Positions 1-22,060 of a stretch of 64,000 bases of DNA are shown in pieces; position 1 is the first letter of the stretch, and each line of letters starts with the position of its first letter. The stretch is from Giardia intestinalis. Its lineage: Eukaryota. The DNA lies in the NCBI GenBank assembly GCA_000002435.2, contig CM018789.1; one strand, given 5' to 3'. Made by a program: the position numbers and the translations under genes. The notes under the pieces are model-generated. The model was not told where the DNA came from and ran no database searches. It saw only the letters and a program-made list of their open reading frames with translations.

Positions 1-485
1 CGCTCGTCTTCACGAGCCGCCTGTTCTCCGTCCGCTCCACTATTGTACTCATGGGTTAAGAGGTTAAAGTTTGCGCCACTTAGATTCTTGGTGTTGCCAC
101 GCTCCCTTAAACGATTGAGATGATCTTGCTTTTCCTGCTCCTCCGCTTCTACCCGCTCAGCTATTCGCCGAGACCGTTCCATAGCAGCCTCGCCTCGAGC
201 TCGTAAGTAGTTTTCACGGCGCAACCTTTCCTCCTCGCGCCTGTTCCGTTCGATATCTAAAATGTTATCAGCAAATCTGTGATGTTCATCAATGTATGCA
301 GCAGAGTTTTGCGAGGCATGGTTGATGAATCCGGGATCCTCGTATTGGCAGTAATCCTCACGTCTCTGTGCAAGCCGCAACTTTTCCATATAATCTCTGT
401 CTTGGAGAGCGCGACGCTCCTCCCTGGTCATTGGCTTTATCCGCTGTCCAATAACTATGTCTTCGTCAACGATGCGACGGCTCAT
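1..485 (-). CDS. Partial CDS (N-terminal part; C-terminus lies beyond window start). Charged Arg/Glu-rich, probably coiled-coil, hypothetical protein.
   Basis: ATG (cat at 483-485 on + strand) preceded on the minus strand by an AT-rich tract. The minus-strand frame is open from 485 to position 1 with no stop (MSRRIVDEDIVIGQRIKPMTREERRALQDRDYMEKLRLAQ...). It is absent from the ORF track, presumably because no stop falls inside the window. Confidence 0.45.
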   Translation of the reverse strand, partial: MSRRIVDEDIVIGQRIKPMTREERRALQDRDYMEKLRLAQRREDYCQYEDPGFINHASQNSAAYIDEHHRFADNILDIERNRREEERLRRENYLRARGEAAMERSRRIAERVEAEEQEKQDHLNRLRERGNTKNLSGANFNLLTHEYNSGADGEQAAREDE

Positions 486-525
486 TTGAAGATTGCCCGG
501 TAAATTTTTAAAATTTGGATTTTTA

Positions 526-2469
526 TTATAGGCCTGTTTCGGTGTCCCGGTAGGCGTCGCGTAGGATATCTTGTAACTTGACACTCATCTCTGAGAGGCT
601 TTCCAAGACACTTATGTTACTAGGTAAATCTGAGAGACGATCCATGTTAACTCTACCGGTGGCGTCCTCTTCGAACAGCCGCTGCATTCTCCTAGGGCTG
701 TGCTTGGAGTTCTTGTCTAAGCGCGTAGGTGATCCCTTAAAGGAGGCGTGCGATGCACGAGGAGAGGAAGGTGTCGCCTCCTTTGTCTCTGCAACCAATT
801 TCTCTTTAAAATCTAAACAGGTGTACTTCTTCAATCTTTCATTGAGTATATTGTTCTTCAGATTAAGTGATTGATTCTGCTCCTTTAGTGTTGCGATCAT
901 GTTTGCTGCCAGTTTCATGTGCACTTGCATCTTGCGAAGGAGTTCAATAGAGTCCGGCTCAACAGACTCACCGTCCAGCATGAGCGCAATTTTCTTTTTG
1001 AGTCTATCATTCTCAACCTCTATTTCTGCTAGTTTTGTTTGCAACAGTGCAATAGTTTCCTTGTCAGCAGTTATTCGCTTGTTCTTTTCCAGAACGCGGT
1101 CATGGTCCTGCTGCAGCTCCTCCAGTTTGAGACTTATCTCCTCAAGTTTTGCCTTATAGCTATTGTTCTCAAGCTCTAGTGTCCGTGAGCACTCTGCAGC
1201 ACGTCTCATTTGCTCCTTCATATCTTTAATCACGTCTTCGTACCTTTGCAATGATGCAGCTTTGGCATCGTCCAGAAGAGGGTTTGGCTTGGCTCGTTCC
1301 AGGTCTGCATTGAGGCCCTTTAACCTGGTGGCCTCCTGGTCAGCGATTTGAAGGGCAATGGTGAGCTTGGACAGGGTTGCATTCAGATTTGAAATTTCTA
1401 CTACCTTTGCAGCAAGGTCATCTTTTACAATCTGCAGCTCTTTCTCTGCATCTAAGGCACGTTTTCGCAATGACCCCTCCACGTCTGTCTGCTGGGCTTG
1501 AAGTTCAGATTGGAGTGAGGCAGTTCTTCTCTTTTCTGCGATAATTGCGCTCTTTAATACAGATATGTCTCCTAGTAACTCTTCTATTTTCGCTTTATAT
1601 TCTACTGAAGCCCGAGAGAGCTCGTCAACCTTCTTTTCTGCCTTTTTCCGTAGCTCTTCTGCTTTCTCCAAGTCTGCACGTGCAGACTCCTTAGTATTGC
1701 ATAGCTTCAGACGAAGCTCTTCCACGTCGTGTTTGTACTTTGCAACGGATCTCTCTAGATCCTCTTCCTTGAGCTGGAGTTCACGCTGGAGAGTTGTTAT
1801 TTTGTGCTGCATGTCACTTTTGGTGGTTCTTTGCCGTTCAGCTGACAGGGACTGCGCATTCTCAAGCTCCTTGCGCAGTGAATCTCGTTCTATCTGCAGG
1901 GAAGCAACCTCTTGCTGCAACTTGACCAAAGTCTCATGGAGGCTTAAAGCATCAAGCCGAGCTTTCTCTGCTTCTTCTTTACTGTCCCTGCTTTCTTTGG
2001 CTGCATTCTCTGCTTTTTCTTCCATCATCTTGTGTTGCATCTCATATCTTTCTATTATTATTTGATTGGCTGTCGCCTTTTTAGTTGCCTCGGACTCTTG
2101 TGTCCTAATTGCCTGTAGCTGTATGGTAGTGTCAGACAGTTTCTGAGACAGGTCTGCTATTTCTAACCGCGCCTTATGGAGTTCTGTCTTTAGGCTTTTG
2201 TTCTCTGTGACAGTTATGTCATAGTGCAAGAGCTTCTGGTCCAAGATAGCTAGCTGATTTATCGCTGTTCCGGCTCGCTCCTTTTCCTTCTTCAAGTCGT
2301 TTGAGAGCGTATTTAGCTCCGCCTCAAGAATGTCGATTGTCTTGTCGCGTTCCAACAGAAGCGCGTAGTTATAATTAAAATCATCTGTCAGCTTCTTATT
2401 AGCTTGACGCTCTGCATTCAGCTGGGCCTCTATGTCACGGGCAAGGTTGAGGAGCAGGCCTTGATCCAT
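526..2469 (-). CDS. Long coiled-coil protein (hypothetical)
   Basis: 647-aa ORF with ATG start. Heptad-like E/K/L/Q-rich composition throughout. The Ser-rich ORFs on the opposite strand are the expected antisense artefact of GAG/AAG-rich coding sequence. Confidence 0.7.
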   Translation of the reverse strand: MDQGLLLNLARDIEAQLNAERQANKKLTDDFNYNYALLLERDKTIDILEAELNTLSNDLKKEKERAGTAINQLAILDQKLLHYDITVTENKSLKTELHKARLEIADLSQKLSDTTIQLQAIRTQESEATKKATANQIIIERYEMQHKMMEEKAENAAKESRDSKEEAEKARLDALSLHETLVKLQQEVASLQIERDSLRKELENAQSLSAERQRTTKSDMQHKITTLQRELQLKEEDLERSVAKYKHDVEELRLKLCNTKESARADLEKAEELRKKAEKKVDELSRASVEYKAKIEELLGDISVLKSAIIAEKRRTASLQSELQAQQTDVEGSLRKRALDAEKELQIVKDDLAAKVVEISNLNATLSKLTIALQIADQEATRLKGLNADLERAKPNPLLDDAKAASLQRYEDVIKDMKEQMRRAAECSRTLELENNSYKAKLEEISLKLEELQQDHDRVLEKNKRITADKETIALLQTKLAEIEVENDRLKKKIALMLDGESVEPDSIELLRKMQVHMKLAANMIATLKEQNQSLNLKNNILNERLKKYTCLDFKEKLVAETKEATPSSPRASHASFKGSPTRLDKNSKHSPRRMQRLFEEDATGRVNMDRLSDLPSNISVLESLSEMSVKLQDILRDAYRDTETGL

Positions 2470-2522
2470 AAAGTGTAAAATTTAATCCTGGTTCACCCTG
2501 CTCTTTACAATCGGATATAGCC

Positions 2523-5500
2523 ATGTTTTTTCTTCGTGGAGAGCGATCTGCATGGCTGAAACCCGCAGCACTGCCGCGATACCTTCAGTATATGCCCGAC
2601 GGGTGGGTTGACGTGACAGACACGAAGCACACAGAGTTATCGGTATTCACCCCATCTACTGTCTTCTACATCCCACAATTCGTGCAATCTGACGGTGCCG
2701 CGCCTTCTGCTATTGCATATGATTATAATACATCTATGCTTTACCGATTTTCGGACCTAAGTCACATGGAATCGAGTCCACTTGGGTTGGACTCTGCGGA
2801 GAAGGCCGCCTGCTGTGTCTTTCGCGGAAATGAGTATCTGGTACTCCTTATAAAGAGTACGGCAAAGCTGTATGCACTTGCACCTGGCCAGCCCCCGCGC
2901 TACTTGGACAAAGCAACCATCTATGAACGCATCGAATACATATATCTTGTATCATGTGATTCGAATCTATATTTAGTTAGCCAATCCGACAAGTCTATTA
3001 AGCTTCGCGGCCTGACTCCTGCAGACCCGTCAAGCCCAAACTTACACCTGAGAAATATATCTGTTTTGCTTCAGCCGATTGAGTCTCAGCGAGAGTCAGT
3101 GACCGGTCTCAAAGCAGGGGTTGGGCTATCTTCTGCCTTAAGAGTGTCTAAACTGCACTATGCTTTTCCCTTCCTACACAGGTACATTGCCATTTTGTAC
3201 ACTCCTTCTTTAGACCTTACTGACTCATTAGATCCTAAGAAGGTAGCGATGCTTCCCGTCCGGATATTGTTGATAGATCCCGTGCTCATGTCCGCAGACC
3301 ACGTTGCCCACGAAGAGCCTGTTTCTAGACTGGATATGATGATTCATAAGATTCTTTCCTTTCAGCTTTACCTCCTGGCGAGGATAGGACCTGATGACTT
3401 AAAGCAGCGAGCTCATAGACTAAGTGCAACTGTGCGAAGGTATAACGACTTTATCGAAACAGGGCGTATAACTCTTCCAGATGCTATTCACGTCTGCTTT
3501 GATATCTCGAAAGATAAGCAATCTAGGGATGATCTAAATCTGGGGGTTTCTTCCATCGTGGATCCCCAGCTCACCCGCCACACACCCCCGACAGATCCCA
3601 TAGCAGAAACACCGGTCATAGGGGATGAATCCAGCTTATTTGGCTCCGCTCGCAAAAGCGTTCAGCAATCTATACGCAGCCTTCCCGATGAAGAGCACTC
3701 CAGCCCTACTAAGGACTGGATTAACCCAGGCGAGACACTAAGGAATACTCTTCTCAAAGAAGGGGGATCGCGGGCCTTCAGTCCTGCAATGGAATGTCCT
3801 CCTGCGCTTATTGACACATCTAGTAGAGAAGCTCATGCAGCAGGTGAGAGGCTACACTCGCTGGACTCAACTATGCAGCTCACAGACATACAGATGCAGT
3901 CTAAGGTCACGCACGGGACGTCCAAGCTCTCTCAAGATGTGTATAAGCCTTCTACATCCACTGTGTCTGTGCACACGCTTCAAGCTCCTGAAGGTTCTGA
4001 CTCTGGTGCTATGATGGCTCTAATCACAAATCTCTCTGGTCTGGTCGAGGCTCAGCAAGAGAAGAGCCGTGCAATGGATGCTCGAATATCTGAGCTATCT
4101 ACCGCGCTCTCCTCGGCCACAGAGACTATAAAGCGCCTCGACCTAGAAAACGGTGAGCTCAGGGAGCGGGTCGTGTACCTGGAGGAGGTTCATAACTCTA
4201 ATATGAAAGGACCCCGAGCCTTGACATATAATGATCTGGGCCAGCTAAAGGAAGAAGTATCCATCTATGCAATGACAGACATTATCTCTACGTTCGATCG
4301 GCTGGCGGACAAAGTTGACTCGGATACAAACAATCTCAAAACAAAATTGTTCACAATGATTGACAAAGAGATAGGTGCTAAAGTTGAGTCATCACTTCGT
4401 CAAACTCTTGAATCTTTAGAAATGAAGCTCAGACAACAGCTCGATAAGGATTTAGAAGCCCTTACGTCTGGCTTAAGTTCCTCCATAGAAACGCTTAAGT
4501 TGGAAGTCGTCTCCAAAGAGACCATATCAAAATTGCTTAGCTCAGTCGTTGAGACAAACGAGGAGAGACTGTCCAGTGTGGTTAATGAGCTCTCCATTAG
4601 TCAAGAGAGATCTATTGAAGACACAACTATTCAATTGGGAAAGCTAGCTAATGAGATTGCAATTGAAAACGCAAGAACAACCTCTCTCGAAACCAATATT
4701 GAGAAGGTGTGGGCGTCCATGCATGCTCTCGAGAGGGAATGTGCTGCATCGCTGCCACTCCATTTAGAGAGTCACTTTCGGAGTTTTATGAACACTATGT
4801 TAACCACTGAGACCACACCAGTATTTAGGGCCTTTTTCAATCGTAGCCTTGAAGAGTACATGACATCTGCAGGAAGCTTAACTAACAATCCACACATTAA
4901 AAATATAGAAAAGCGGCTGGAGGAGGAAGCTCGTAGCATGCGTTCTGAGTTCAGGAGCGAGATCAATGAGCTTGCAACGAGCCTCAAAAGAATCAATCTA
5001 GAAGCGGCGTTACCTCATTCTTCTCTCACTGATGCCACACTCAAAAGGCTTGCAGAGCAGATAGAGGCCCAAAATGAATCCATACTGAGCTTGCAGATAC
5101 AGGTTGGCGCCGCAGCAACAAATGCTGCAGCGGCAACCACAGCGTCATCTCTTGTAGATAGCAAGACAGCAATCTTCAAGTATATTATTCAAAGGCTAAA
5201 CACAGACTACCTTCCTACCTTTGCTGCTGATGTAACAGCAATTGTTATTCAACGCGTCAAGGATGACCTGGAGTCAGATAGGGCCACGGCGGATAACCGC
5301 GCACTTATAGAGGAAGTCGTTACTAGCAGCAGAATAATCAACCAAATAGAGACACTGTCAACTAGAACGTATGTTAACTTGCTGGATAAGATACCTGGAA
5401 TTGTGGACCAGGAACTAAAGGAAAAGATGCCTCACCAAATAAACGAGCAGATCGCTAAGCATCTCGCAGAAGAGATATACTCTCTGAAAAATATTTCGTT

Positions 5501-10900: not shown

Positions 10901-12880
10901 CGACCACTTCCTTCTGCTACCCTGGAGCTCAGAAGCAAAAACGCACTTGTGATACCGACCAAGATGGCCTTCATAAGCGGTAGCATTCTTCTTTGTGGGA
11001 TCCCAATTATTATGCCGTCTGACACACGAACTATCTCAAAAATGGAGATCCGTGGTCTTCGAATTTCTTTTCTCCCCATAGATGTGCGTTCAACAGGGTC
11101 TCTTTCAAAGTCGTCTTCCTTTTCCAAGTCAAAATCCTCGCTACCCCCACTTACAACATCAACCGTTCCAAATGATGGGGCCACCACCCAGCAGACAGAG
11201 ATTATTTTGGAAACTCCTGTCTCATTCCCCGTTCTTTCGCATGCTGCTGACATTGTGATATCCGTTGTATTTCCAAACTCACCAGTGCTTCCGGGGCAGA
11301 TTGTCCAGGGGCAATTGGTAGTGAAGAACACTGGCCAGCGCGATGTTTCCAATCTGCTTATCTCCTCAAGCCATCAAGCATATTGTGTCTATGATCATGA
11401 GGCGTGTGTTTATCTGGATGAAGTAACACTAGAGTCGGACCAACATGAGGGTACGCTGTCTTCAAAACTAACAGATATCTCTCTTGAGGTGGCCCTCGAT
11501 TTTATCTTCCCAAGCCCTCTAGCTGTATTATCAGAACTAGAGCAGATTGCAGCCACTCCTCACGAACAATCCGTACTGAAGCTGGATCTTGCAAGGCCTT
11601 ACATTAAGAGGGTCTTGCAGAATTGTATGAAAGAGCTTATGATGCCTCCCATGCTCCAGGATAGATTGATCGTTTGCAGAAGGAGCCTAAGATCACGCGA
11701 GTCTATTGCGATTCCAATACTTCTTCTTATTCCACCTGGAGCGCAACCAGGAAAGCTCATTGTTGAATACTATCTAGGATACTCTATTACTGTTTGGCCT
11801 GTCGTGTCAGAAACTACTGCAGAGCTTCATATCCTCTCCGCAGCTAAGCCCAGTCTCCAAGGCCAGCCAAGTCTATCGTTACCTAGGGATGCGATTGCAA
11901 AGTCAGTTGCAGAAAAACAGCATAGCGTTAGAGCAATTCTTCCATCCGGTCAGGATGAGCTAGTTGCAGTAATACTCTCAAAGCGGTGCACTCCACCATC
12001 TCTGTGTAGACTCACTCTGGAGAAGAGTGGATTCACCTACACTGGAACGTTCCTCTGTGACCAGTACAAAGACTCATTGAGATTACTTCGGCAGCGCAGC
12101 CAGTCATTCACACCAACCCAACAAAATAAGGTGGGCATTCCACCGGACGCACTGGCCAATGAGGCCTTGATTAAGCAGACTAAGGATCTTGCAGGAATAT
12201 CTCGATCGTCGCTATTAAAGCTACATGAGAACATTACATTGTTGCTTAAGCGGGCAGAACTACACAAATACGGCCCCAGCCTTTTACCCCTGGCATACAA
12301 CTACCTAAAAAAGCAAAGTAACTTTTCATTTCAAGACCGAAACGATACTGCTTATAACCTAAATGAATTTCATAGCACAATCCTAAAGGACTTGCAGACA
12401 GTTCAAAGCGCCGTGCTCGATATGTACGTTAAAGAATTTTGTCAAGTAACGACAAGAGACTTTAGTCTGGTTTATTCTTCTGGGGACAAGGTGTTCTTAA
12501 ATCGTGAATTCACCCCCACTGCTTCTCGTGACCCGCCTGGGCTGGGCCCTCTATCTGCAATGGTCCGATGCAATGCTGCAGCCGATGGTAAGGTAAGCTT
12601 TGACCTTGTTATGGTTAACCGGTCTCTTACCGTGATTAATACACACGTGTCTGCCAATATTAGTGGTCCTACCGGCCTGTTTTCCATGATAGGCCTCCAG
12701 ACAATCATTGGGGAAATAGATTCATTTGAAGTAGCCATAGTGCCTTTTATGGCGTGTGCCTCTTCGATTGGAGAGTGCACAATCTCCGTCTCTGTCGACG
12801 CGACCGTCTCCGTGGGTTCTCTACAGAGAAGGGTCCCAGTAGTTGATTGTGGGCTCCGGCTTTCTCTCATCGTTGCATAG
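7958..12880 (+). CDS. Very large hypothetical protein (1640 aa)
   Basis: Uninterrupted 4.9-kb ORF with ATG start. I see no recognisable catalytic motif. Confidence 0.7.
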   Translation: MTFFEPNYLAEALSFRSRLTIGLHINKTSAELCARNGIDLLHFLRNMPPYRVQAPLTADYINYQGRRTSAVLNNLQFKLYLVDELASIPLRVSQIVTPAPDQAIASANDTLIKNALGQLVQHFQGSSRNSTSSLSTSLHSSTIESISSDILRDIVSAYANAGFAQFRCFEHDFLDNPVGYLAVCAMTDSREEKIAAIKKITTGLPAVLQGAVSGMSDNDVCLTLLIIDLYPTDRSSQYIDPGLHNELTRYRVKPLYLNLQLFQQYIMEPSTDVNITEYLQSTHTKRYFEYLFSCEGFAADMYSDIVWSPMAMDPSSEDKKGLYARPTVSDLIVKQSNVLFSFFNTVFSYYLKTILIPFLASKLFNISESCEETVSVGKKMANILAGHHTSAKQATRTVPAHAHLSQGKAFYTKFPIEYRIRRLADLLLQCNLIDDACAYYETLLPRQKHKATSPFVAEAYEGAAFASLRKYFANYSFDNAHVHISADDTSKLLKYYGEALRIINDCLSDPTLGHVSLCNASLHSPFRLSGQVFNSPLQNAENGLSPFTPTPAFQTRISVYRLFDYKRYLEIMAALVYTVSGQSFHLVEKTFSYAIPHTINSLTAALSYLVSSFLLCEARYVRLGTESAFRAGALFFNDRLFNLAFLCFTYAFMNLDRPHLLPALKTGWWFATVYESELLYCRTRALRSERLDLQTAATKEPTLIDALSNKILQLLKNTTSKQMQTELFYPKDISSIVKHTPSTFSDPSSPIGSCFASLQRLLITNQVALPQLMSLFCLPFSTAKEIEERSLRFCIKNVTPPVRNIGETPLRYTVRLFSDLIQSTNGDADSSINTFLKKAFTPARKFIVRDYLVDFLTHIAPRLTNFDYKVLLKADAEKLKIIHKEIRIPSVSVSGLYHPNINLSSIILLDSKSLPCPFETLQGLVYHKLAKTQLLDQLNNIKAIRAGETAMAIFCLSNEYPLLDYDIKKVELSLCFYDESNRPLPSATLELRSKNALVIPTKMAFISGSILLCGIPIIMPSDTRTISKMEIRGLRISFLPIDVRSTGSLSKSSSFSKSKSSLPPLTTSTVPNDGATTQQTEIILETPVSFPVLSHAADIVISVVFPNSPVLPGQIVQGQLVVKNTGQRDVSNLLISSSHQAYCVYDHEACVYLDEVTLESDQHEGTLSSKLTDISLEVALDFIFPSPLAVLSELEQIAATPHEQSVLKLDLARPYIKRVLQNCMKELMMPPMLQDRLIVCRRSLRSRESIAIPILLLIPPGAQPGKLIVEYYLGYSITVWPVVSETTAELHILSAAKPSLQGQPSLSLPRDAIAKSVAEKQHSVRAILPSGQDELVAVILSKRCTPPSLCRLTLEKSGFTYTGTFLCDQYKDSLRLLRQRSQSFTPTQQNKVGIPPDALANEALIKQTKDLAGISRSSLLKLHENITLLLKRAELHKYGPSLLPLAYNYLKKQSNFSFQDRNDTAYNLNEFHSTILKDLQTVQSAVLDMYVKEFCQVTTRDFSLVYSSGDKVFLNREFTPTASRDPPGLGPLSAMVRCNAAADGKVSFDLVMVNRSLTVINTHVSANISGPTGLFSMIGLQTIIGEIDSFEVAIVPFMACASSIGECTISVSVDATVSVGSLQRRVPVVDCGLRLSLIVA

Positions 12881-12884
12881 CTGG

Positions 12885-12891
12885 AGTAAAT
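12885..12891 (+). terminator. Putative polyadenylation signal AGTAAAT (AGTRAAY-type)
   Basis: Sits 5 nt downstream of the TAG stop at 12878-12880. It matches the Giardia-type AGTRAAY consensus (established knowledge). Weak on its own. Confidence 0.3.
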
Positions 12892-12975
12892 GTTCACCAC
12901 TTGCTAACAGATCAAGCCATTACAAATTGTAAAACTACATAGCTGATATTTTTGTTGATACCTTGCCCGCGAGCG

Positions 12976-14565
12976 ATGAGTTCGTTCTTATCTGCAGATA
13001 CTCATAGCACTTTGGCGCCATATCTGTCAGCAGAGGTAACTCATAAGGATTTTCGTTCTGGGATCTACGGCGATAGCGCCTCAACCCAGAAAGGACAGCA
13101 TCTGTTGAAGCACCAGAACCAATACATTGATGGCCTCTTAATAGATAAAGAGGCAGATCTTGCAAGTCATGTGCAGCGGATCTTCGATCTTAACGACCCA
13201 ATAAGGCGCTTGTATCTGCTCTACCTTTCGCAACAAGCCGACATTACAGAGGTGGAGGTCTGCCTTTTAAAGGAGATCATGTGCCTGCGGGCCATTGTTG
13301 TGGGCTATCTAGAATACACCGATACATGGCATGAGCATCTCCAGGTACTACCGCTGAGCGCGTCATTTCGTACTCTAAGTGCAAGCCTAGCTTCTCGTCT
13401 GAGTGAAGAGTTGACAGAGAGGCTAGACAGGCTCACAAATACATGTGCAGTTCAGACAGTGGCACAAAGCATGACCAGTGTTCACACTCAAACCTTGAAT
13501 CAAGGTTTGTCTAGAGCACTTGCTGCTAGTGGGTTAGCAGATGAAAGCGATGCACTCATCACAAGTGCTGTTTCTTCTAGCGGGGTCAGACTCCCAACAC
13601 AGACACATAATCCGCTTGTTAGCAAAGTGAAGCAGTTACATGACCTTCTTGCAGAAAAAGAGGCCCGCATTGCAGAGCTTTCTACAGATCTCGCTGAGGC
13701 ACGCCAACAAATAGCTAATCATCGCGATTCGTTACATATTACAGATTTGTATACGGAGAAGCAATCTGGCTTCTCTGGGCCATTTCCAGCCAGCCAAGAT
13801 TCTAAGTTGGTTGTTAAACAGAGATCTACAAGCGCAGGGGTGTATACGGCAAAATCTGCATGTGAGCCGCTAGTAGCTCCATCTCAGAGAGCCTCTTCCA
13901 TACCAGATCATCAAAATGCCCACAGTAATACCCAGACAATCGTCTCGGCTGAACTAGTGCCAAAGACAGTGCTAGTGAATCTACACAAGTCTATCTCGGA
14001 ACGAGACACTCTTCTGGCAGAAAAATGTGAAATAATAACCACTCAACAGAAAGAGATTTCTTGGTTGAAGGAGATGTTGCGAATGCATGAAGCAGAAAAA
14101 GAAAGAGTTGCCCTACAGTCGACCACGTGCCACCAACCAGCTTCGCTCGTGCAATCTAATACTATAGAGTCTGATCACCCACTAGATAAGCGGAACAGTA
14201 GAGTGTCTTTTAGCATGGATGCTTCGACACCATCTAAGCGGGCTCGTTCTAAGAAGTCCCGAACAGTCGAGGCAATGATTGACGCCCTAGAGTTAGAGTC
14301 GCAGGTGATGTCCCTGAAAAACCAAATCTCTAAACTCCCCGCATCTGAAGATCTGGTTGAGGATGCGGTGACCCGCTTAGCATTCCTCGAGCAAGAACTT
14401 ACTCAGAAGTCCATCAGCTTGACAGACCTTAAGGCCTCTGCAGGCTCACCTCTCAGCCAAGCCGTCTCTCCACAGGTTTTTGACGACGATATCTCCAGAT
14501 TGATTGCTGATCACCAAGCGGTCTTTGCAACGGTTGAACGGTCCCTCTCACAAGCAACCAAATGA
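12976..14565 (+). CDS. Coiled-coil hypothetical protein (about 530 aa)
   Basis: The ORF track starts this at 12952, but that codon is TTG. The first in-frame ATG is 12976 (MSSFLSAD...), preceded by gatatttttgttgata. The C-terminal half is coiled-coil-like. Confidence 0.6.
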   Translation: MSSFLSADTHSTLAPYLSAEVTHKDFRSGIYGDSASTQKGQHLLKHQNQYIDGLLIDKEADLASHVQRIFDLNDPIRRLYLLYLSQQADITEVEVCLLKEIMCLRAIVVGYLEYTDTWHEHLQVLPLSASFRTLSASLASRLSEELTERLDRLTNTCAVQTVAQSMTSVHTQTLNQGLSRALAASGLADESDALITSAVSSSGVRLPTQTHNPLVSKVKQLHDLLAEKEARIAELSTDLAEARQQIANHRDSLHITDLYTEKQSGFSGPFPASQDSKLVVKQRSTSAGVYTAKSACEPLVAPSQRASSIPDHQNAHSNTQTIVSAELVPKTVLVNLHKSISERDTLLAEKCEIITTQQKEISWLKEMLRMHEAEKERVALQSTTCHQPASLVQSNTIESDHPLDKRNSRVSFSMDASTPSKRARSKKSRTVEAMIDALELESQVMSLKNQISKLPASEDLVEDAVTRLAFLEQELTQKSISLTDLKASAGSPLSQAVSPQVFDDDISRLIADHQAVFATVERSLSQATK

Positions 14566-14672
14566 TACGATTCACTCGACTCATTGACTACATCGAGTGC
14601 TGCGCCACTACCCTACGGGGGCGGGTACGCCCATCCACTGCCGCTCCAGAGGCAAGGTAGATTTCGTGGAGC

Positions 14673-16338
14673 CAGGGCGGCTCTCGCGGGGCCTGGCACC
14701 TGGCGTCCTGGGCGGTGCCGGGTCTGAGTGGGTGTGCGCCTTCAGCACTGTGGGCGTCCCCCGTCCCTCTTCTGGTACAAGGGATCGGTGATGCGTACCC
14801 CCTCGGTCTGCGTGCGATTGTCAGTGCCCGTGCCTCGTGGTGTCCCGGCTCTTTCAGCCCCAGCTGTCGCGGCGCCCTGCTCCGGCCATATCCCCACGAG
14901 GCCGCGTATTCTTCCATGGGACGGTCCTGGTTCCGTAGAGGCACGCCTGGGCCCACGATTCTCCCTGCGGAGGCCCCGTTGTCTGTGCTACTGGGGTCTG
15001 GGCCATCCGTCTGTACCGCTGCTTCAGGAGTCACATGAGTAAACTGCCTTTCACGTGGCTTTTTATAGAAGTAGACACTGATTGTAATCAACAGGGTCTA
15101 AAGATCTCTCGCCAATTGTACATGTCAGATCCTGTGGATTTTGGAATCCTTGGGTAGCATCCGTGCCCGGCTGATACGCGCGCCTCGGGCTCAGCAAGCC
15201 TGCCACCCTCCTCCTCTTGCCCCCTGCGAGGACGCCGCCACTGGCTAGACGCGTGCACAGCTTGTCCATCCGGCCCTTGAGAAGAGCCACATCACACGAG
15301 GAAGGGCGCCGTTTACTCGAGGAGAGAGGCGATTGCGTCGTGGCCATGCCTCCTTGCGATGTCGAGGGCGGTGGTGCCGGGCGGGAAGCCGAACCACTCG
15401 CGGGTGGTCTGCATGCCTTTCTCCTTGTCCATCAGGAGCCTCGCACACTCCAGGTGACCACTCTGCGCTGCATGCATGAGCGCTGTCCATCCATTGTTAG
15501 TCTTCATGCCGTCTTCTTTGTCTACTAGAAGCCTCACGCAGTCCGAGCAACCGTTGTCGGCTGCGTGCATGAGGGCAGTCCACCCACTGTTGGCCCTCAT
15601 CCCGCCTTCCTTGTCCAGTAGAGCCTCCGCACACTCGCGGCGCCCATACTGTGCTGCATACATTAGGGCGGTCTTCCCATCATCCGTTTTCATGCCACCC
15701 TCCCTCTTCAGCAGAACCTTCACGGCTCTCAGGTTTCCATACTCTGCTGCTGACATGATGTCGGTCTCGACGAAGCCGTATTTCAGCAACAAAAAAGACG
15801 AGAGACTCAGCCCGCTCCCCCCTGTTGGCGGCAAAACTCTGCGGCGTCATCGAGGCTCCCATCGGAAGCAGACCCCTCGGTGTCCTGAGGGCGACGACTC
15901 ATTTCCGAAGCCCCAAGCACGTCGCTCGGCATTTTTAACTTCGTCTGCTTGCAGGAAGACACTGCCACGGAAACACACACTTTGCTCTCTGCTTCACTGA
16001 GAACGGTTTGTCAACTGCTGTCCGAGCATCTCCGTGAGAGCCGCCGCGCTGGGTGGGCCGCCCGCTCACCGTCCGGGGTCCAAGGTTCAGATCTTGAAGT
16101 TCGAACTCGTGCCCTCATACAAGGCCTCCTCCCCTGTGGGTAGGCGGGTCTCACGCTCGTTCACTTCTCCAATCCAGGACTCAGAACTCGAAGCTTGAGC
16201 GTCGCATGTCATGATGATTTACTCCACCCACCGGTTGCTTCCAGTGGTGTGCTGCTGGGGCCTGCCTGCAGGTATGGTCCAGAGATCTCACGGGTAAGCT
16301 CTTGCTCAGTCCCTGACTAGTCCGGAGACGAGGGTTGG
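14673..16338. repeat. Left arm of a 1,666-bp inverted repeat. GC-rich.
   Basis: Reverse complement of 19151..20816, with about 3-4 mismatches over 1,666 bp. The outer boundary is exact to the base (divergence begins at 14672). The inner boundary shows 2 mismatches in the last 30 bp. Confidence 0.9.
15313..15756 (-). CDS. Ankyrin-repeat protein (147 aa, about 4 ANK repeats). Copy 1 of 2, located in the IR left arm.
   Basis: The track ORF 15313..15834 starts on a non-ATG codon (TTG). The first ATG gives MSAAEYGNLRAVKVLL.... Repeats read GWTALMHAADNGCSDCVRLL / GWTALMHAAQSGHLECARLL, the 33-residue ankyrin consensus. There is an AT-rich tract (tcttttttgttgctgaaatac) about 20 nt upstream of the ATG. 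Confidence 0.6.
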   Translation of the reverse strand: MSAAEYGNLRAVKVLLKREGGMKTDDGKTALMYAAQYGRRECAEALLDKEGGMRANSGWTALMHAADNGCSDCVRLLVDKEDGMKTNNGWTALMHAAQSGHLECARLLMDKEKGMQTTREWFGFPPGTTALDIARRHGHDAIASLLE

Positions 16339-19150
16339 CCGCGGGTTGCAACGATAACCACAGCGGGGGCAAAGAGGGGTTCCCTCCACGTGTGGATCTG
16401 GGGTCTGTGCGTTCCGCGGCTGTTCCGCGGGCGTGCACAGCTGGACCTGAGGCGACGGAGAGCCCGTGAGGACCCGATCCACATTATGAACGCAAGATCG
16501 TACCTTCGGGCCCCAGAGAGCAAGCTGTGAGTCTCTACTCGGGGTGACACTCCGAAGACGTTTGCCCTCTCGGCAGGACACACACGCTGGCTCTGTGGCC
16601 TACCGTGTGAGAGCGCCAAGCAACTGACCGAGCACCTGAGAGAAGCAAATGATGACAGACACAGAGTGCTGGGCGACGACAAACTGATCCTTCCGTCCCA
16701 CATACCGAACCAGACAGCTGCCATGCTCATCCACCAAGGTGCACGCATGATCGCGAGCATCGAGCAGGCAGGGACTGGAGTCGCGCTCCCTGCTATCAGG
16801 GGCCTGAACGCCCTGGTGGGAAGCCCCAGAGGACTCAAGCAACACAGTAGAGCAGGCCCAGAGTAAGGCAGACCCAGACCCCGAGAAGGCGAGACGCCGG
16901 ATAGCAAACAGGGTGAACAACGCGCTGAGCTTCGGAGCAGTTGCTAAGGCTCTCCGCGCCCTTGATGAGACACCCGTGCGTCCCCCCGAAGGCTACGTTG
17001 GCCTTGACTACCCTCCATCGATGAGCTCGACGGGCTGGAGCGGCAACCGAGGAGGAAATGAGGAAGGCCCTGTTGGGACTCTCAACAAGAAGGCCTCAGG
17101 CGTGTCTGGCCTCGGGCCGGTCCAGCTCAGGTGACGAAGCAGAGCGACAGCTTCGTGAAATACCTCACGCAGGCGTACAACGAGCTGACCACCCACCCCG
17201 AAGGAGTCCGACGTGATGGCCATGTTCGAGTTCCGGGCGATCCTCATCCCGAAAGAGTCCGACGGATACCCCGATCGCGATAGGCGGATGGTCACGAACA
17301 TCTTCCACCGCGTCCTGCTGAAGGGCTGATCAGGCATGCCAACTACCTCTCATGCGAACAGATCGCCTTCAAGCAGAACGCATACGCGGTAGGCGTGAGG
17401 AGGGCCCACGAGCTCATCAGCAGGCCGGGGATGCACGCCGTCTCCCTCGACATAAAGAACGCCCTCAACTCGCTCCCGAGGGCGGAGGTCGTCAGAGCCC
17501 TGAACGAGGCGGAGGTCCCGAAGGTCCTAGTCGACTACATCGGGGACTTCCTCGACCTGAGGCACAGCCGGGACGTGAAGTGCGAGGTCTGCGGCGTCCC
17601 CCAGGGCGACCCGCTCAGCACGCTCCTCTTCTGCATGGCCATCGAGCGCCTCCTGAGACGCCTCAGGGAGAGGGGCATCACCTTCCTTGCCTAGCGGACG
17701 ACATCGTGGCGTTCCACGACGAAGGGTACCCAGCAGGTGTGATAACACAGCTGGCCACAGCAGAGGCTGCCGCCATGGGCCTGACGATCAGGAGCGACAA
17801 TGCAAGTCCACCATGGCGGGCGAGGAGGTGACCTTCCCCAACCACCCGGTGTCCCCCACCCCTGCCAGTCTCGCGCCGAAGGCCATCGCAGGTGCCGAGA
17901 CTGCCCCCATAACCACCCACCAGAAGCTCATCCTGCTGTCACTCTGCGTGGTCCCGATGGTGAGCTACGCCCCCCTGGTCGAGATAACATCGGACAAGGC
18001 GGACTACGAGGAGCTCGACAGACGTCGCACAAAGCTTCAGCAAGCTAACCAGCAGAAGCTGCGATCGCCTGGTCGACTTCCTGGCGTACCAAAGGAGAAG
18101 GGCGGCCTGGGCCTGCTCATGCCGGGGCTCTACCACGACGAGCTGCGGAGGGTGTGGGCCTCCCTGGACGTCAACAAGGGGACCAGAGACCCGGTGGAGC
18201 TGCCGGTGGAAGGCCAGGCACTGCAAGGGAAGGGGCCTACTCCAACCGCCTCCTCAGCCACACACCAGCTTCCAGACAGAGCGGCGGCGTGCTGACCGAG
18301 GAGGAAAGGGCCCTGAAGGAGAAGGGCGGCTCGATCATGGCGCAGAAAGAGGCACCTGCCCGGGCTGCCACACGGCGAGGACCCTCGACCACGAGGCACG
18401 ACATGATCGTCGCGTGCCTGTGCCTCCGCGTCTCGGGGAAGCTCAACCGGAGCTGGAAATCAAGACCCACAGCCACCTCAGCGACCAGAACCAGAAGCCC
18501 GACATCTGGCTCGTCGACAAGTGCAAAGCGATAGATGTGGGTGTCATCCAGCTCCGCCAGATGGATGCCTACTACAACGAGAAGGTCAAGAAGTACAGGG
18601 ACGGGACGCTCCCGATCATCTACGGGACAGACGGATCCCTCCACCCCAGTCCAAGGGGCACCTCGAGGAGCTCCACGTGGACCTCTGTCCGGGCCGCCTT
18701 CGCCATCGCCCACATGGCTGCAGAGGAGAACGAGCATCCGACGAAGCTGATCAGACGCGACCGGGCCGAAAGCCTGGTCACCCAGAGCGACCGTCTCCTG
18801 TCATCCTACTTCTGACAGCTGAATGAATCCACCCCTGGGACCTGTCGACAACGACCGAGAAGGGGCAAAGACTGGACACACAACCGAGTTGAATCCCAAC
18901 CAGAAGAGAAAGCCCCGCTAGCTGCTGCTGATATACATGGACAGCATTGAGAATGACAACAAAGACCAGAGCTTCACTCACCGTGAAGGGAGAACAAGGA
19001 GAGGCGCCCTAGTAGACCAGCGAGCCTGCAGGACGGCCTGATCTCCAAAAGGACCTATGTGCACTCTTAAACCGAGCACACGCCCGTAGAACAGCTGAGG
19101 AACGCAATAGCTCCTCCTACTACCACTGTGGTCCTTATATTGATACACGA
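16339..19150 (+). mobile_element. Degenerate non-LTR retrotransposon remnant (RT plus restriction-enzyme-like endonuclease; Genie/R2-like RLE type). Occupies the core between the IR arms.
   Basis: Plus-strand fragments in three frames carry RT motif 1/2 (ILIPKESDGY...FHRVLLKG), motif 2a (EQIAF), motif A (AVSLDIKNALNSLPR), motif B (GVPQGDPLSTLLFCMAIE) and motif C (LADDIVAF). Downstream lie GGLGLL and a PD-(D/E)xK module (KPDIWLVDKCKAIDVGV). At least three frameshifts are visible, so there is no intact ORF. Confidence 0.7.
17141..18815 (+). pseudogene. Frameshifted reverse transcriptase / REL-endonuclease ORF remnant
   Basis: RT motifs 1 through C, then the thumb/GGLGL region, then the PD..D.K nuclease. 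They are spread over frames 17141-17340, 17395-17694, 17695-17831, 17687-18295 and 18414-18815. Frame changes occur near 17340, 17690 and 18400. Confidence 0.65.
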
Positions 19151-20816
19151 CCAACCCTCGTCTCCGGACTAGTCAGGGACTGAGCAAGAGCTTGCCCGTG
19201 GGATCTCTGGACCATACCTGCAGGCAGGCCCCAGCAGCACACCACTGGAAGCAACCGGTGGGTGGAGTAAATCATCATGACATGCGACGCTCAAGCTTCG
19301 AGTTCTGAGTCCTGGATTGGAGAAGTGAACGAGCGTGAGACCCGCCTACCCACAGGGGAGGAGGCCTTGTATGAGGGCACGAGTTCGAGCTTCAAGATCT
19401 GAACCTTGGACCCCGGACGGTGAGCGGGCGGCCCACCCAGCGCGGCGGCTCTCACGGAGATGCTCGGACAGCAGTTGACAAACCGTTCTCAGTGAAGCAG
19501 AGAGCAAAGTGTGTGTTTCCGTGGCAGTGTCTTCCTGCAAGCAGACGAAGTTAAAAATGCCGAGCGACGTGCTTGGGGCTTCGGAAATGAGTCGTCGCCC
19601 TCAGGACACCGAGGGGTCTGCTTCCGATGGGAGCCTCGATGACGCCGCAGAGTTTTGCCGCCAACAGGGGGGAGCGGGCTGAGTCTCTCGTCTTTTTTGT
19701 TGCTGAAATACGGCTTCGTCGAGACCGACATCATGTCAGCAGCAGAGTATGGAAACCTGAGAGCCGTGAAGGTTCTGCTGAAGAGGGAGGGTGGCATGAA
19801 AACGGATGATGGGAAGACCGCCCTAATGTATGCAGCACAGTATGGGCGCCGCGAGTGTGCGGAGGCTCTACTGGACAAGGAAGGCGGGATGAGGGCCAAC
19901 AGTGGGTGGACTGCCCTCATGCACGCAGCCGACAACGGTTGCTCGGACTGCGTGAGGCTTCTAGTAGACAAAGAAGACGGCATGAAGACTAACAATGGAT
20001 GGACAGCGCTCATGCATGCAGCGCAGAGTGGTCACCTGGAGTGTGCGAGGCTCCTGATGGACAAGGAGAAAGGCATGCAGACCACCCGCGAGTGGTTCGG
20101 CTTCCCGCCCGGCACCACCGCCCTCGACATCGCAAGGAGGCATGGCCACGACGCAATCGCCTCTCTCCTCGAGTAAACGGCGCCCTTCCTCGTGTGATGT
20201 GGCTCTTCTCAAGGGCCGGATGGACAAGCTGTGCACGCGTCTAGCCAGTGGCGGCGTCCTCGCAGGGGGCAAGAGGAGGAGGGTGGCAGGCTTGCTGAGC
20301 CCGAGGCGCGCGTATCAGCCGGGCACGGATGCTACCCAAGGATTCCAAAATCCACAGGATCTGACATGTACAATTGGCGAGAGATCTTTAGACCCTGTTG
20401 ATTACAATCAGTGTCTACTTCTATAAAAAGCCACGTGAAAGGCAGTTTACTCATGTGACTCCTGAAGCAGCGGTACAGACGGATGGCCCAGACCCCAGTA
20501 GCACAGACAACGGGGCCTCCGCAGGGAGAATCGTGGGCCCAGGCGTGCCTCTACGGAACCAGGACCGTCCCATGGAAGAATACGCGGCCTCGTGGGGATA
20601 TGGCCGGAGCAGGGCGCCGCGACAGCTGGGGCTGAAAGAGCCGGGACACCACGAGGCACGGGCACTGACAATCGCACGCAGACCGAGGGGGTACGCATCA
20701 CCGATCCCTTGTACCAGAAGAGGGACGGGGGACGCCCACAGTGCTGAAGGCGCACACCCACTCAGACCCGGCACCGCCCAGGACGCCAGGTGCCAGGCCC
20801 CGCGAGAGCCGCCCTG
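19151..20816. repeat. Right arm of the 1,666-bp inverted repeat
   Basis: Reverse complement of 14673..16338. The outer end is exact at 20816 (gccctg|ttcc). Confidence 0.9.
19733..20176 (+). CDS. Ankyrin-repeat protein (147 aa). Copy 2 of 2, located in the IR right arm.
   Basis: Identical protein to the 15313..15756 copy. ATG at 19733 (catcATGtcagca). Transcribed outward, away from the retroelement core. Confidence 0.6.
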   Translation: MSAAEYGNLRAVKVLLKREGGMKTDDGKTALMYAAQYGRRECAEALLDKEGGMRANSGWTALMHAADNGCSDCVRLLVDKEDGMKTNNGWTALMHAAQSGHLECARLLMDKEKGMQTTREWFGFPPGTTALDIARRHGHDAIASLLE

Positions 20817-20895
20817 TTCCCGGCGCAGTCGCAGATAGAGACAGAAGACGACGAACCCCTCAGAGACGGGGATTGAAAAGATCGGGCCAAACGGC

Positions 20896-20902
20896 TATTT
20901 AC
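20896..20902 (-). terminator. Putative polyadenylation signal AGTAAAT directly after the stop of 20903..22060
   Basis: The minus-strand sequence following TAA reads agtaaat, matching AGTRAAY. Confidence 0.3.
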
Positions 20903-22060
20903 TTAGTTCACATCCGACACCGTAGTGCGGAGCTCGGCCCCGTTAATCTCCATGTTACCGAAGGCATCCCTAAGGATCTTGCCATTCTCCACAGTGCAGT
21001 AGAACGACACTTCGGAAGGATTGGGCTGCTTGGGTCTCCTCAAGCGAGACTCTGCAAGAGCTTTTAGAATGTCTGCGTGCTCATCTTTATCGAGGTTTTC
21101 CTTGATATCGTCGAATGCTAGAGCCTCAGGAATCCCTGCGATCGTAAGGAGACATGGGAGCCTTTCCTTCTGAGATTGCACCTTCTTGCCCTGCTTCTTC
21201 TTAGGCTTGGCGGCCTTCTGGTCATCAGCAAGCTGTACTCTAATTCCGGTGGCCTTCTTGGCTCCAGGCTTCTTCACACCACCCTTCGCCTCTTGGTGTC
21301 TCCTCTGCTTATTTTTTGTGCCCAGGGTACCATCGCCTGCAGACCCAACCCTCTCGCGAAGCTCCTGGATATGCTTACGGCGCTTCTCCGGGTTAATGAA
21401 CCTTATGGCGGGAACGCGTTCAAAAAGATTATCGGCAGAGAGAGCAGCAAAAAGCTTCTCTATCTCAGAAGACTGAACAACAACGGCGACCTTCGTCCCC
21501 CTCTGCGGCGGACGACCTTCAACATATCTAATCCCCATTGTCGCGCACCTGCCTTGCACAGAAGAGCCGCTGGCATCCTTGAGAGCACCCGCATTGATCC
21601 TTCCACGGATAGCATCCAGCACTTGATACTTCGCGGTGATCTTGAACTTGTGATCCTGAGCTGGCGTGATCTTCGAGAGGGTCTTAGTCAAAAAGGCGAC
21701 GACCTTCTCCGGGTCCATGAACTCTCCTGGTGCGGAGGTAACCGTGATGATGACATTTTTGCTTGTCTTGAGGTAGTCTGCATTGTACTCCTTGAACTTA
21801 GTAAAAATGGAAACATTGCGGTCGATGCAGTTCTTGCGTGCTTCATCCTGGTCGAGGGGAAGCAGATCAGCTTCTGGGTACTTCTGCCTAACCGCGGCAA
21901 GCAGCTTCCCATAGCCACAAGGTATTTCGACGCCCTTGTCAGTTTCACGGGCCTTGTTGGCTAGGTACGGCGAGCGAAAGCCGTCGACACCTTTGATGAT
22001 CTCCTTCAGGGTCCTTGTGAACTCCTCTGTAAGCTTCACACCCTTAATAATGATCGGCAT
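20903..22060 (-). CDS. Hypothetical protein with a central lysine-rich basic region. Possibly nucleolar or ribosome-biogenesis related, but function unassigned.
   Basis: 385-aa ORF with ATG start. Basic tract KKPGAKKATG...KPKKKQGKK between two structured segments. No diagnostic catalytic motif. Confidence 0.6.
   Translation of the reverse strand: MPIIIKGVKLTEEFTRTLKEIIKGVDGFRSPYLANKARETDKGVEIPCGYGKLLAAVRQKYPEADLLPLDQDEARKNCIDRNVSIFTKFKEYNADYLKTSKNVIITVTSAPGEFMDPEKVVAFLTKTLSKITPAQDHKFKITAKYQVLDAIRGRINAGALKDASGSSVQGRCATMGIRYVEGRPPQRGTKVAVVVQSSEIEKLFAALSADNLFERVPAIRFINPEKRRKHIQELRERVGSAGDGTLGTKNKQRRHQEAKGGVKKPGAKKATGIRVQLADDQKAAKPKKKQGKKVQSQKERLPCLLTIAGIPEALAFDDIKENLDKDEHADILKALAESRLRRPKQPNPSEVSFYCTVENGKILRDAFGNMEINGAELRTTVSDVN

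Follow-up and report, generated by a model that had tools for sequence, protein, structure and literature searches.

Positions 16218-19271 of the stretch analyzed here (the window, 64,000 nucleotides of contig CM018789.1 of Giardia intestinalis, assembly GCA_000002435.2) most likely hold a dead copy of the non-LTR (lacking long terminal repeats) retrotransposon family GilD/Genie 2 in isolate WB, enclosed in a palindrome whose arms would be homogenized by gene conversion. The isolate is identified by the neighboring window open reading frames (ORFs), which exactly match GL50803_009861 and GL50803_007831 of Giardia intestinalis WB C6. Since the family to which this fossil copy belongs has already been described in Giardia, the element is nothing new in itself. 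A frameshift-aware alignment, made by a dynamic programme between 16200-19300 and a composite of the related Giardia proteins P0001 (residues 1-805) and P0004, reports 76.6% identity across 853 residues with 18 frame changes, and genuine homology begins around reference residue 325, that is at window position ~16430. The pseudogenized single ORF delimited in this way covers 16430-18815 on the plus strand, with several in-frame deletions, and comprises a zinc-finger relic, a reverse transcriptase (RT), a linker, a CCHC motif and a restriction-like endonuclease (RLE). A frameshift-tolerant comparison of this kind had been proposed in an earlier description of the window from its letters (hereafter the sequence-only reading), and its outcome with the Giardia relatives agrees with that reading.

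Coding relic, decay and termini

The fingers and palm of the RT, from motif 0 to motifs C/D, extend over 17049-17800 (plus strand), as delimited by RVT_1 matches and motif positions. In a three-frame translation of 16300-19200, every peptide quoted in the sequence-only reading is found on the plus strand at the place given there: ILIPK (17240-17254) and FHRVLLKG (17303-17326) in frame 2, EQIAF (17356-17370), SLDIKNALNSLPR (17443-17481) and VPQGDPLSTLLFCMAIE (17596-17646) in frame 1, LADDIVAF (17691-17714) in frame 0, and GGLGLL (18101-18118) in frame 2. The raw, unrepaired ORF at 17395-17694 (99 residues) already matches Pfam RVT_1 (E 5e-11, 43.1 bits for a cut-off of 29.6), and the match reaches E 2.5e-19 and 70.2 bits after conceptual repair of the RT. 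The nearest solved structures are R2 proteins (E 0.001), followed by the RTs of group II introns and retrons. The motif set is far beyond chance and the RT is that of a non-LTR element. The RT motifs are thus recognizable and frameshifted, as had been claimed, and the accompanying label of an R2/Genie-like element of the RLE type is borne out by the RVT_1 match, by R2 as top structural match and by a C-terminal motif series co-linear with R2; 'Genie-like' is even literally right, since the nearest relatives are Giardia proteins.

The thumb/linker region (17800-18150, plus strand) contains the sequence KEKGGLGLL, conserved in P0001 and P0004, and aligns to the 'DGGLGV' region of R2. It is followed on the same strand by a CCHC remnant and the core of the predicted RLE (18357-18700), delimited by the frameshift-aware alignment, by motifs and by an RLE hidden Markov model (HMM). 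The CCHC remnant CPGCH (18357, frame 0), devoid of its third-Cys segment, the RHD motif RHDMIV (18394, frame 1), ELEIK (18450, frame 0), KPDIWLVDKCKAIDVGV with KPD...IDVGV (18495-18545, frame 0), and EKVKKY (18579-18596, frame 0) provide CCHC, RHD, E, KPD, D.V and K.KY in this order between 18357 and 18596. No Pfam model matches the C-terminus of the element. The RLE HMM was built from nine RT relatives possessing an intact CCHC-RHD-KPD-D.V-K.KY series, GilD-family sequences being excluded, and searched against the 1158 stop-to-stop ORFs of the window. The two first ranks go to adjacent frames of the element, namely 17988-18812 (E 0.0012, spanning KPD to K.KY) and 18049-18531 (E 0.11, spanning the RHD segment). 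The hhalign comparison with R2-like RLEs reports an E value of 0.0021 with a probability of 13%. P0004, submitted as a single sequence against the PDB, aligns co-linearly with R2 (GGLG; CCHC / RH / KPD / D.V / K.Y) at a non-significant E value of 0.8, while a profile of three GilD-family sequences returns weak hits with the influenza PA endonuclease (E 0.04-1), which is a PD-(D/E)xK enzyme. An AlphaFold2 single-sequence model of P0004 has a mean predicted local distance difference test score (pLDDT) of 38 and is unusable for fold comparison. At the level of motifs and profiles, the C-terminal domain is predicted to be a PD-(D/E)xK RLE, as the signature reported earlier after the GGLGLL linker had indicated.

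Regarding the 5' end, P0001 is the longest family member (1108 residues) and its only Pfam matches are RVT_1 and zf-C2H2, the latter at residues 200-219. A second Cys/His motif lies near residues 245-260 and a third one at residues ~395-420 (SCWICGLACENAKQLAEHLRESNDDRH). By Pfam, P0001 is therefore a single ORF with N-terminal fingers and is devoid of an N-terminal apurinic/apyrimidinic endonuclease (APE) domain. A tblastn search aligns its residues 307-1095 with window positions 16399-18643, in three frames, and the first two fingers are therefore absent from the window copy, which lacks roughly the first 325 codons as compared with P0001. The third finger persists as a C2H2-like relic at 16588-16662 on the plus strand (WLCGLPCESAKQLTEHLREANDDRH), which lost its first Cys (TRWLC versus SCWIC) and whose intact counterpart occurs in P0001 and in the ORF of isolate P15 (CPACSLRFASKAELAAHLSNATDDQH). 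The 5' truncation suggested by the sequence-only reading thus stands, P0001 residues before ~325 being missing, whereas its statement that no finger is visible overlooked this relic.

Decay affects the whole coding region. Between 16430 and 18815, each of the three frames contains 15-22 stop codons. The Y codon of YADD is lost through a 1-nt deletion at ~17692, and RPIAIG is out of frame through a local double shift. In-frame deletions have removed seven residues of the thumb (ALRKIEN), 13 residues of the CCHC motif including the third-Cys segment, and about 20 residues upstream of motif 0. The stop codon at 18813-18815 directly follows LLSSYF. The window copy is dead, as had been recognized from its frameshifted motifs, and is unable to make protein.

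The ends of the element are given by its paralogous copies in isolate DH. Positions 8546-11672 of contig L008 align to 16218-19271 with 83.6% identity, positions 884-4054 of L011 (AHGT01000170) align to the element with 85.2% identity, and L009 aligns up to its contig end with 87% identity. The limits of 16339-19150 proposed earlier are thus wrong, and the unit is 16218-19271. Homology ends at TTTACTCCACCC... on the left and at the reverse complement ...GGGTGGAGTAAA on the right, and the terminal 25-mer TTTACTCCACCCACCGGTTGCTTCC occurs in the window at 16218 (plus) and 19271 (minus) only, as well as at both ends of L008. The element therefore possesses its own terminal inverted repeats (TIRs), on which the sequence-only reading was silent. 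Alignment of the termini of the window copy, L008 and L009 assigns the left TIR to 16218-16437 (plus strand), an inverted copy of the element 3' end that is near-perfect over 16218-16341 and diverged, with an indel, over 16342-~16437. The right TIR (~19065-19271, near-perfect over 19148-19271) belongs to the 3' untranslated region (UTR; 18816-19271, plus strand). The TIR of the window copy thus comprises 124 near-perfect nucleotides and about 95 diverged ones. In L008, a 170-nt inverted repeat (98%) is found exactly at the limits of homology to the window, between flanks that are unrelated to each other, and L011 exhibits about 190 nt of element-derived repeat inside a longer inverted repeat. 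The window copy, L008 and L009 have an identical junction between the inverted piece and the truncated ORF, so that the rearrangement must have happened only once, in a progenitor from which all three copies inherited it.

The 3' UTR ends on AGTAAA (19266-19271), which is the sole AGTRAA in 18801-19300 and coincides with the end of paralog homology. This hexamer matches the Giardia polyadenylation signal, and a 3' terminus at a poly(A)-like signal is as expected for the end of a retrotransposed RNA. As a consequence of the TIR, the reverse complement of AGTAAA also stands at 16218-16223, so that transcription from either strand could end at the limits of the element. No target-site duplication is evident at L008 or at the window copy. 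Likewise, no sequence-specific target emerges when the flanks of L008, L011 and the window copy are compared, as they share nothing outside the TIRs; Genie 2, too, has reportedly been described as not site-specific. An Rfam scan of 14000-21500 reports neither a hepatitis delta virus (HDV)-like ribozyme nor any other RNA. A DNA transposon or foldback element was also considered and rejected, as there is no transposase and the RT ORF fills the unit.

The palindrome and its counterparts

Two inverted arms of 1669 nt (14673-16341 / 19148-20816) enclose exactly this element, which forms their 2806-nt spacer; the arms are 99.76% alike and differ by four mismatches (16100, 16288, 16295 and 16339). 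In each arm, the inner 124 nt are element TIR and the outer 1545 nt are host DNA. The host-derived parts (14673-16217 on the left, 19272-20816 on the right) are homologous to the arms of isolate P15, and the left one has no counterpart beside L008. Each contains an ankyrin-repeat ORF of 173 residues pointing away from the element: copy 1 on the minus strand at 15313-15834 (Pfam Ank_2, E 1.7e-34) and copy 2, identified from the ORF list and Pfam, on the plus strand at 19655-20176, the genes starting at 15834 and 19655, respectively. No exact entry for their product was found on record. Tandem Repeats Finder reports a 93-nt period at 15422-15673 and 19853-20084, corresponding to ankyrin repeat units, and no other tandem repeats.

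The orthologous locus of P15, which belongs to assemblage E, lies in one contig (ACVC01000035, positions 11236-20089), with flanking genes 87% identical to those of WB. The two P15 arms (11236-12328 / 18996-20089) share 99% identity, compared with 74-86% identity to the WB arms, and the P15 core is an RT-RLE remnant in the same orientation as the WB element. In P15, the outer end of the arm maps to WB position 14597, and the junction between arm and element on the 3' side is the same within ~11 nt. Comparison of WB 14597-14672 with 20817-20837 indicates that ~76 nt belonging to both P15 arms, and retained on the WB left flank, are absent from the WB right arm or have been replaced there, so that the palindrome's outer limit has moved in the WB lineage. 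Judged from these alignments, the palindrome is older than the split between assemblages A and E and undergoes concerted evolution of its arms. Regarding assemblage B, a search for the orthologous locus through GL50803_009861 homologues returned only short contigs or paralogs.

Similar arrangements are found elsewhere in Giardia. In L011, the inverted repeat is at least 920 nt long (163-1083 / 3855-4773), reaches the contig end, and its arms include the 3' ends of two variant-specific surface protein (VSP) genes (CRGKA-stop) that point towards the element. Further TIR/3'-UTR fragments are nested in its flanks, at about 280-561. L008, on the other hand, represents a copy with the TIR alone, without an extended inverted repeat. 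In WB, four of the seven duplicated VSP gene pairs arranged as '<- ->' have an RT remnant (ψRT) between them, with spacers of 3242-6264 bp, and twelve duplicated pairs arranged as '-> <-' are separated by a constant spacer of 2.5-2.8 kb in which nothing is annotated (PMC7000408, Table 2). With the window, an ankyrin pair in the same '<- ->' arrangement around a ψRT joins these cases. The spacers of the '-> <-' VSP pairs, close in size to the 2.8-kb GilD spacer described here, might be unannotated ψRT remnants.

Family assignment and alternative explanations

Close protein relatives of the element comprise only six Giardia duodenalis ORFs in 5.8 billion, from GS_B, DH and one ENA contig, several of them being partly out of frame (including P0002, P0003 and P0005 from DH). 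An exhaustive HMMER search with P0001 reports 3540 relatives, the nearest ones outside the family being a second Giardia set named 'Reverse transcriptase/endonuclease', the RTs of Spironucleus and Hexamita, and unnamed metagenomic proteins. The window RT is 73% identical to P0001 (GSB_155064, assemblage B), 29-31% to the second Giardia RT family (ESU40772, ESU45216), 28% to Spironucleus and Hexamita, and 24-26% to the R2-like P0121 and P0172; diplomonad, metagenomic and R2-like RTs taken together give 26-32%. GilD is reported to have been named by Arkhipova and Morrison in 2001 and to be the same family as the Genie 2 of Burke, Malik, Rich and Eickbush (2002), whose copies are said to end in inverted repeats of up to ~172 bp. 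Giardia contains three non-LTR families, of which GilM and GilT are subtelomeric and tandem with intact ORFs, while GilD is dead, deletion-ridden and located in gene-poor regions adjoining VSP genes (PMC10999387; PMC2861651; PMC7000408). The window element is interstitial, solitary and dead, and its paralogs L008, L009, L010 and L011 all adjoin VSP genes. Owing to these features and to an RT identity of 73% within the family versus 29-31% to the other Giardia set, the window element is, with high confidence, a GilD/Genie 2 copy, an assignment reached by elimination and by features, and made against the description of the named family.

Two side observations concern the fate of the family and of its relatives. 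L010 from GS_B (AHHH01000232, positions 1-3327), which encodes P0001, retains an uninterrupted frame of 1108 residues with three finger-like motifs and the whole RT, the frame being lost only in the RLE; this suggests that the death of the family was more recent, or different, in assemblage B than in assemblage A. Intact proteins combining an RT and a CCHC-RLE module (P0037, P0038, P0206 and P0041) occur in Hexamita inflata (many copies of about 1212 residues), in Spironucleus salmonicida (1186 residues) and in metagenome and SRA assemblies. From their sequences, a wider diplomonad 'Genie' clade may exist and is possibly still active.

Several observations weigh against the assignment and the history proposed for this locus. 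The window copy is flanked by ankyrin-repeat and housekeeping genes (e.g. dynein heavy chain) and has no VSP neighbor. The family name comes from elimination, from secondary citations and from the inverted repeat length of ~172 bp reported for Genie 2. The statistics for the RLE are modest (E 0.0012 in the window, 13% with hhalign, an AlphaFold pLDDT of 38). Arm-to-arm gene conversion, the usual explanation for such concerted arms, and the origin of the TIRs are both inferred rather than observed. Lastly, the RT of the P15 element is 45-46% identical to that of the WB copy, which is lower than the 73% between WB and assemblage B, although the latter is the outgroup. The P15 element is also longer at its 5' end, where it matches P0001 residues 75-272, and neither a TIR in this element nor the WB TIR sequence in P15 was found. 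With an RT identity of 46% and no TIR in P15, the spacers of WB and P15 are therefore not simple orthologues, and sequence comparison contradicts simple orthology. Possible histories of the spacer include its exchange, through ectopic conversion or recombination with another copy, a second insertion at the same site, or the persistence of distinct ancestral subfamilies. Both isolates carry an element at the same point of the locus, within ~11 nt, despite the lack of detected site specificity.

Among the alternatives, two question the assembled sequence. If the frameshifts were errors of the long-read reference, the element could be live or recently active: the WB reference derives from PacBio reads, its authors saw homopolymer frameshifts before Illumina polishing (PMC7000408), and some relatives exhibit long open frames (the 1108 residues of P0001, the intact C-terminus of P0004). 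However, among the 18 frame changes, the sites inspected lie outside homopolymer runs and are therefore not long-read errors, the copy bears in-frame deletions of 7, 13 and about 20 residues and lacks ~325 codons at its 5' end, and independent paralogs of another isolate are equally broken. A live element is effectively refuted. Similarly, the palindrome could have been created by the assembly, or by a single, very recent duplication that has nothing to do with the element. Short-read assemblies break inside the right arm, between ~30 nt (WB-type L001, at 20787) and ~630 nt (DH L003, at 20186) from its outer boundary at 20816, as any repeat would cause, and the near-perfect arm identity would suit a recent event. 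Nevertheless, independent DH contigs run into the arm, a single P15 contig spans the core together with both arms, and its outer arm boundary corresponds to that of WB, the four mismatches between the arms and the 76-nt difference at their outer edge argue against a fold-back read artefact, and the repeat is continuous with the TIR of the element. The palindrome is real, and an artefact or unrelated duplication is highly improbable.

The two other alternatives accept the sequence and differ on the nature of the element or on what maintains its surroundings. A decayed copy of telomeric GilM/GilT (Genie 1) would share the host and the domain order, an RT followed by a C-terminal endonuclease, with the window element. 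This is contradicted by an RT identity of 29-31% to ESU40772/ESU45216, presumed to be of the GilM/GilT type, versus 73% within its own family, and by an interstitial location among housekeeping genes, without a tandem array. Weak evidence in the same direction comes from the Genie 1 primers (PMC1950533), which are absent from the window at up to three mismatches; they are also absent from L012, which is uninformative as L012 is of assemblage B. A GilM/GilT origin is very unlikely. The inverted-repeat unit could also be kept for a host function, either as a source of hairpin or double-stranded RNA for RNA interference, or as a device that duplicates and homogenizes surface and ankyrin genes. 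The conservation of the palindrome in assemblages A and E, the arm identity of at least 99%, the same architecture at VSP pairs (PMC7000408) and in L011, and reported small RNAs from Giardia retroposons (cited in PMC10999387) are in line with such a role. The spacer sequence, though, lacks conservation between WB and P15, the Rfam scan of 14000-21500 is empty, and gene conversion alone accounts for the arm identity with no need for selection. A host function is therefore improbable, and a dead GilD/Genie 2 copy within a gene-converting palindrome remains our preferred reading.

Proposed history and comparison with known systems

GilD/Genie 2 encodes one protein, in which N-terminal zinc fingers, an RT and a GGLG thumb/linker are followed by a CCHC knuckle and, at the C-terminus, a predicted PD-(D/E)xK RLE. 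By analogy with R2, the RLE would nick the target and the RT would start target-primed reverse transcription at the 3' end of the element RNA. In the rearranged copies, the place of the missing 5' part is taken by about 220 nt of the element's own 3' end in inverted form, which probably arose through priming from both target ends, or through fold-back of the complementary DNA (cDNA), during one integration. Indeed, two-end priming or cDNA fold-back would yield just such a 5' segment, matching the 3' terminus in inverse down to its final base. From these TIRs, the arms continue seamlessly into host DNA, each with an ankyrin gene, and arm-to-arm gene conversion would keep the palindrome near-identical within each genome while the repeat boundaries shift as in plastid inverted repeats. 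A more general and tentative proposal, suggested by the recurrence of such arrangements but which we consider possible but doubtful, is that the self-complementary termini of GilD/Genie 2 seed palindromes that grow outward from the TIRs into host DNA, creating and then homogenizing inverted pairs of neighboring genes (here ankyrin genes, at other loci VSP genes). Seeding could proceed by fold-back priming at integration, or by conversion tracts overrunning the repeat boundary, and palindromes seeded in this way would outlast the divergence of assemblages A and E even while the spacer retroelement is replaced. If this were true, a dead retrotransposon family would drive the duplication and concerted evolution of Giardia VSP and ankyrin genes.

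Three Giardia non-LTR families have been known since 2001-2002, and ψRTs between divergent VSP pairs have already been tabulated (PMC7000408). The present analysis adds a clean annotation of the copy, with its true ends, TIRs, poly(A)-signal terminus, zinc-finger relic and frameshift inventory. It also extends the ψRT-in-palindrome arrangement beyond VSP genes, to a locus common to assemblages A and E whose arms appear to be in concerted evolution, and it indicates that simple orthology does not hold between the spacer elements of assemblages A and E.

As compared with known systems, the window element resembles GilD/Genie 2 in its host species and isolate (WB), in its single ORF combining an RT and a C-terminal RLE, and in TIRs of about 170 nt (in L008). 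Like GilD/Genie 2, it is known only from degenerate copies with frameshifts and deletions, with the caveat of the 1108-residue frame of P0001 in assemblage B, and it is interstitial with paralogs beside VSP genes. It differs in that the window copy is located between two ankyrin genes and in that host DNA lengthens its inverted repeat to 1669 nt. In this comparison, made by features and not with deposited sequences, nothing contradicting membership was found. GilM/GilT, equivalent to Genie 1, share with the window element the genome, the RT and RLE architecture, and the deep 'Genie' branch of RLE elements. In contrast, they are subtelomeric, head-to-tail and intact, whereas the window copy is interstitial, solitary, dead and flanked by TIRs, with an RT identity of ~30% to the presumed GilM/GilT-type proteins.

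More distantly, R2 (R2Bm, R2Tg) exhibits zinc fingers, RT, GGLG linker, CCHC and PD-(D/E)xK RLE in the same order. Unlike R2, the window element is devoid of a 28S rDNA target or any detectable site specificity, its RT is only 24-26% identical to those of the R2-like P0121 and P0172, the window returns no HDV-like ribozyme match, and TIRs are a feature of the window element and not of R2. Among named relatives, the RT/RLE elements of the diplomonads Spironucleus salmonicida and Hexamita inflata come next, with E values of 1e-44 to 1e-47 to P0001, and the Hexamita proteins possess intact CCHC, RHD, KPD, D.V and K.KY motifs. These diplomonad elements have intact ORFs of about 1200 residues, in contrast with the fossil window copy, and share 28% RT identity with it. 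Regarding the palindrome, its arms, at least 99% identical within a genome and 74-86% between lineages, with slightly shifted boundaries, recall the palindromes of the human Y chromosome and the expansion of plastid inverted repeats. The analogy is one of process only, as the palindrome described here encloses a retroelement, and the inverted ends of that retroelement make up the innermost stretch of each arm.

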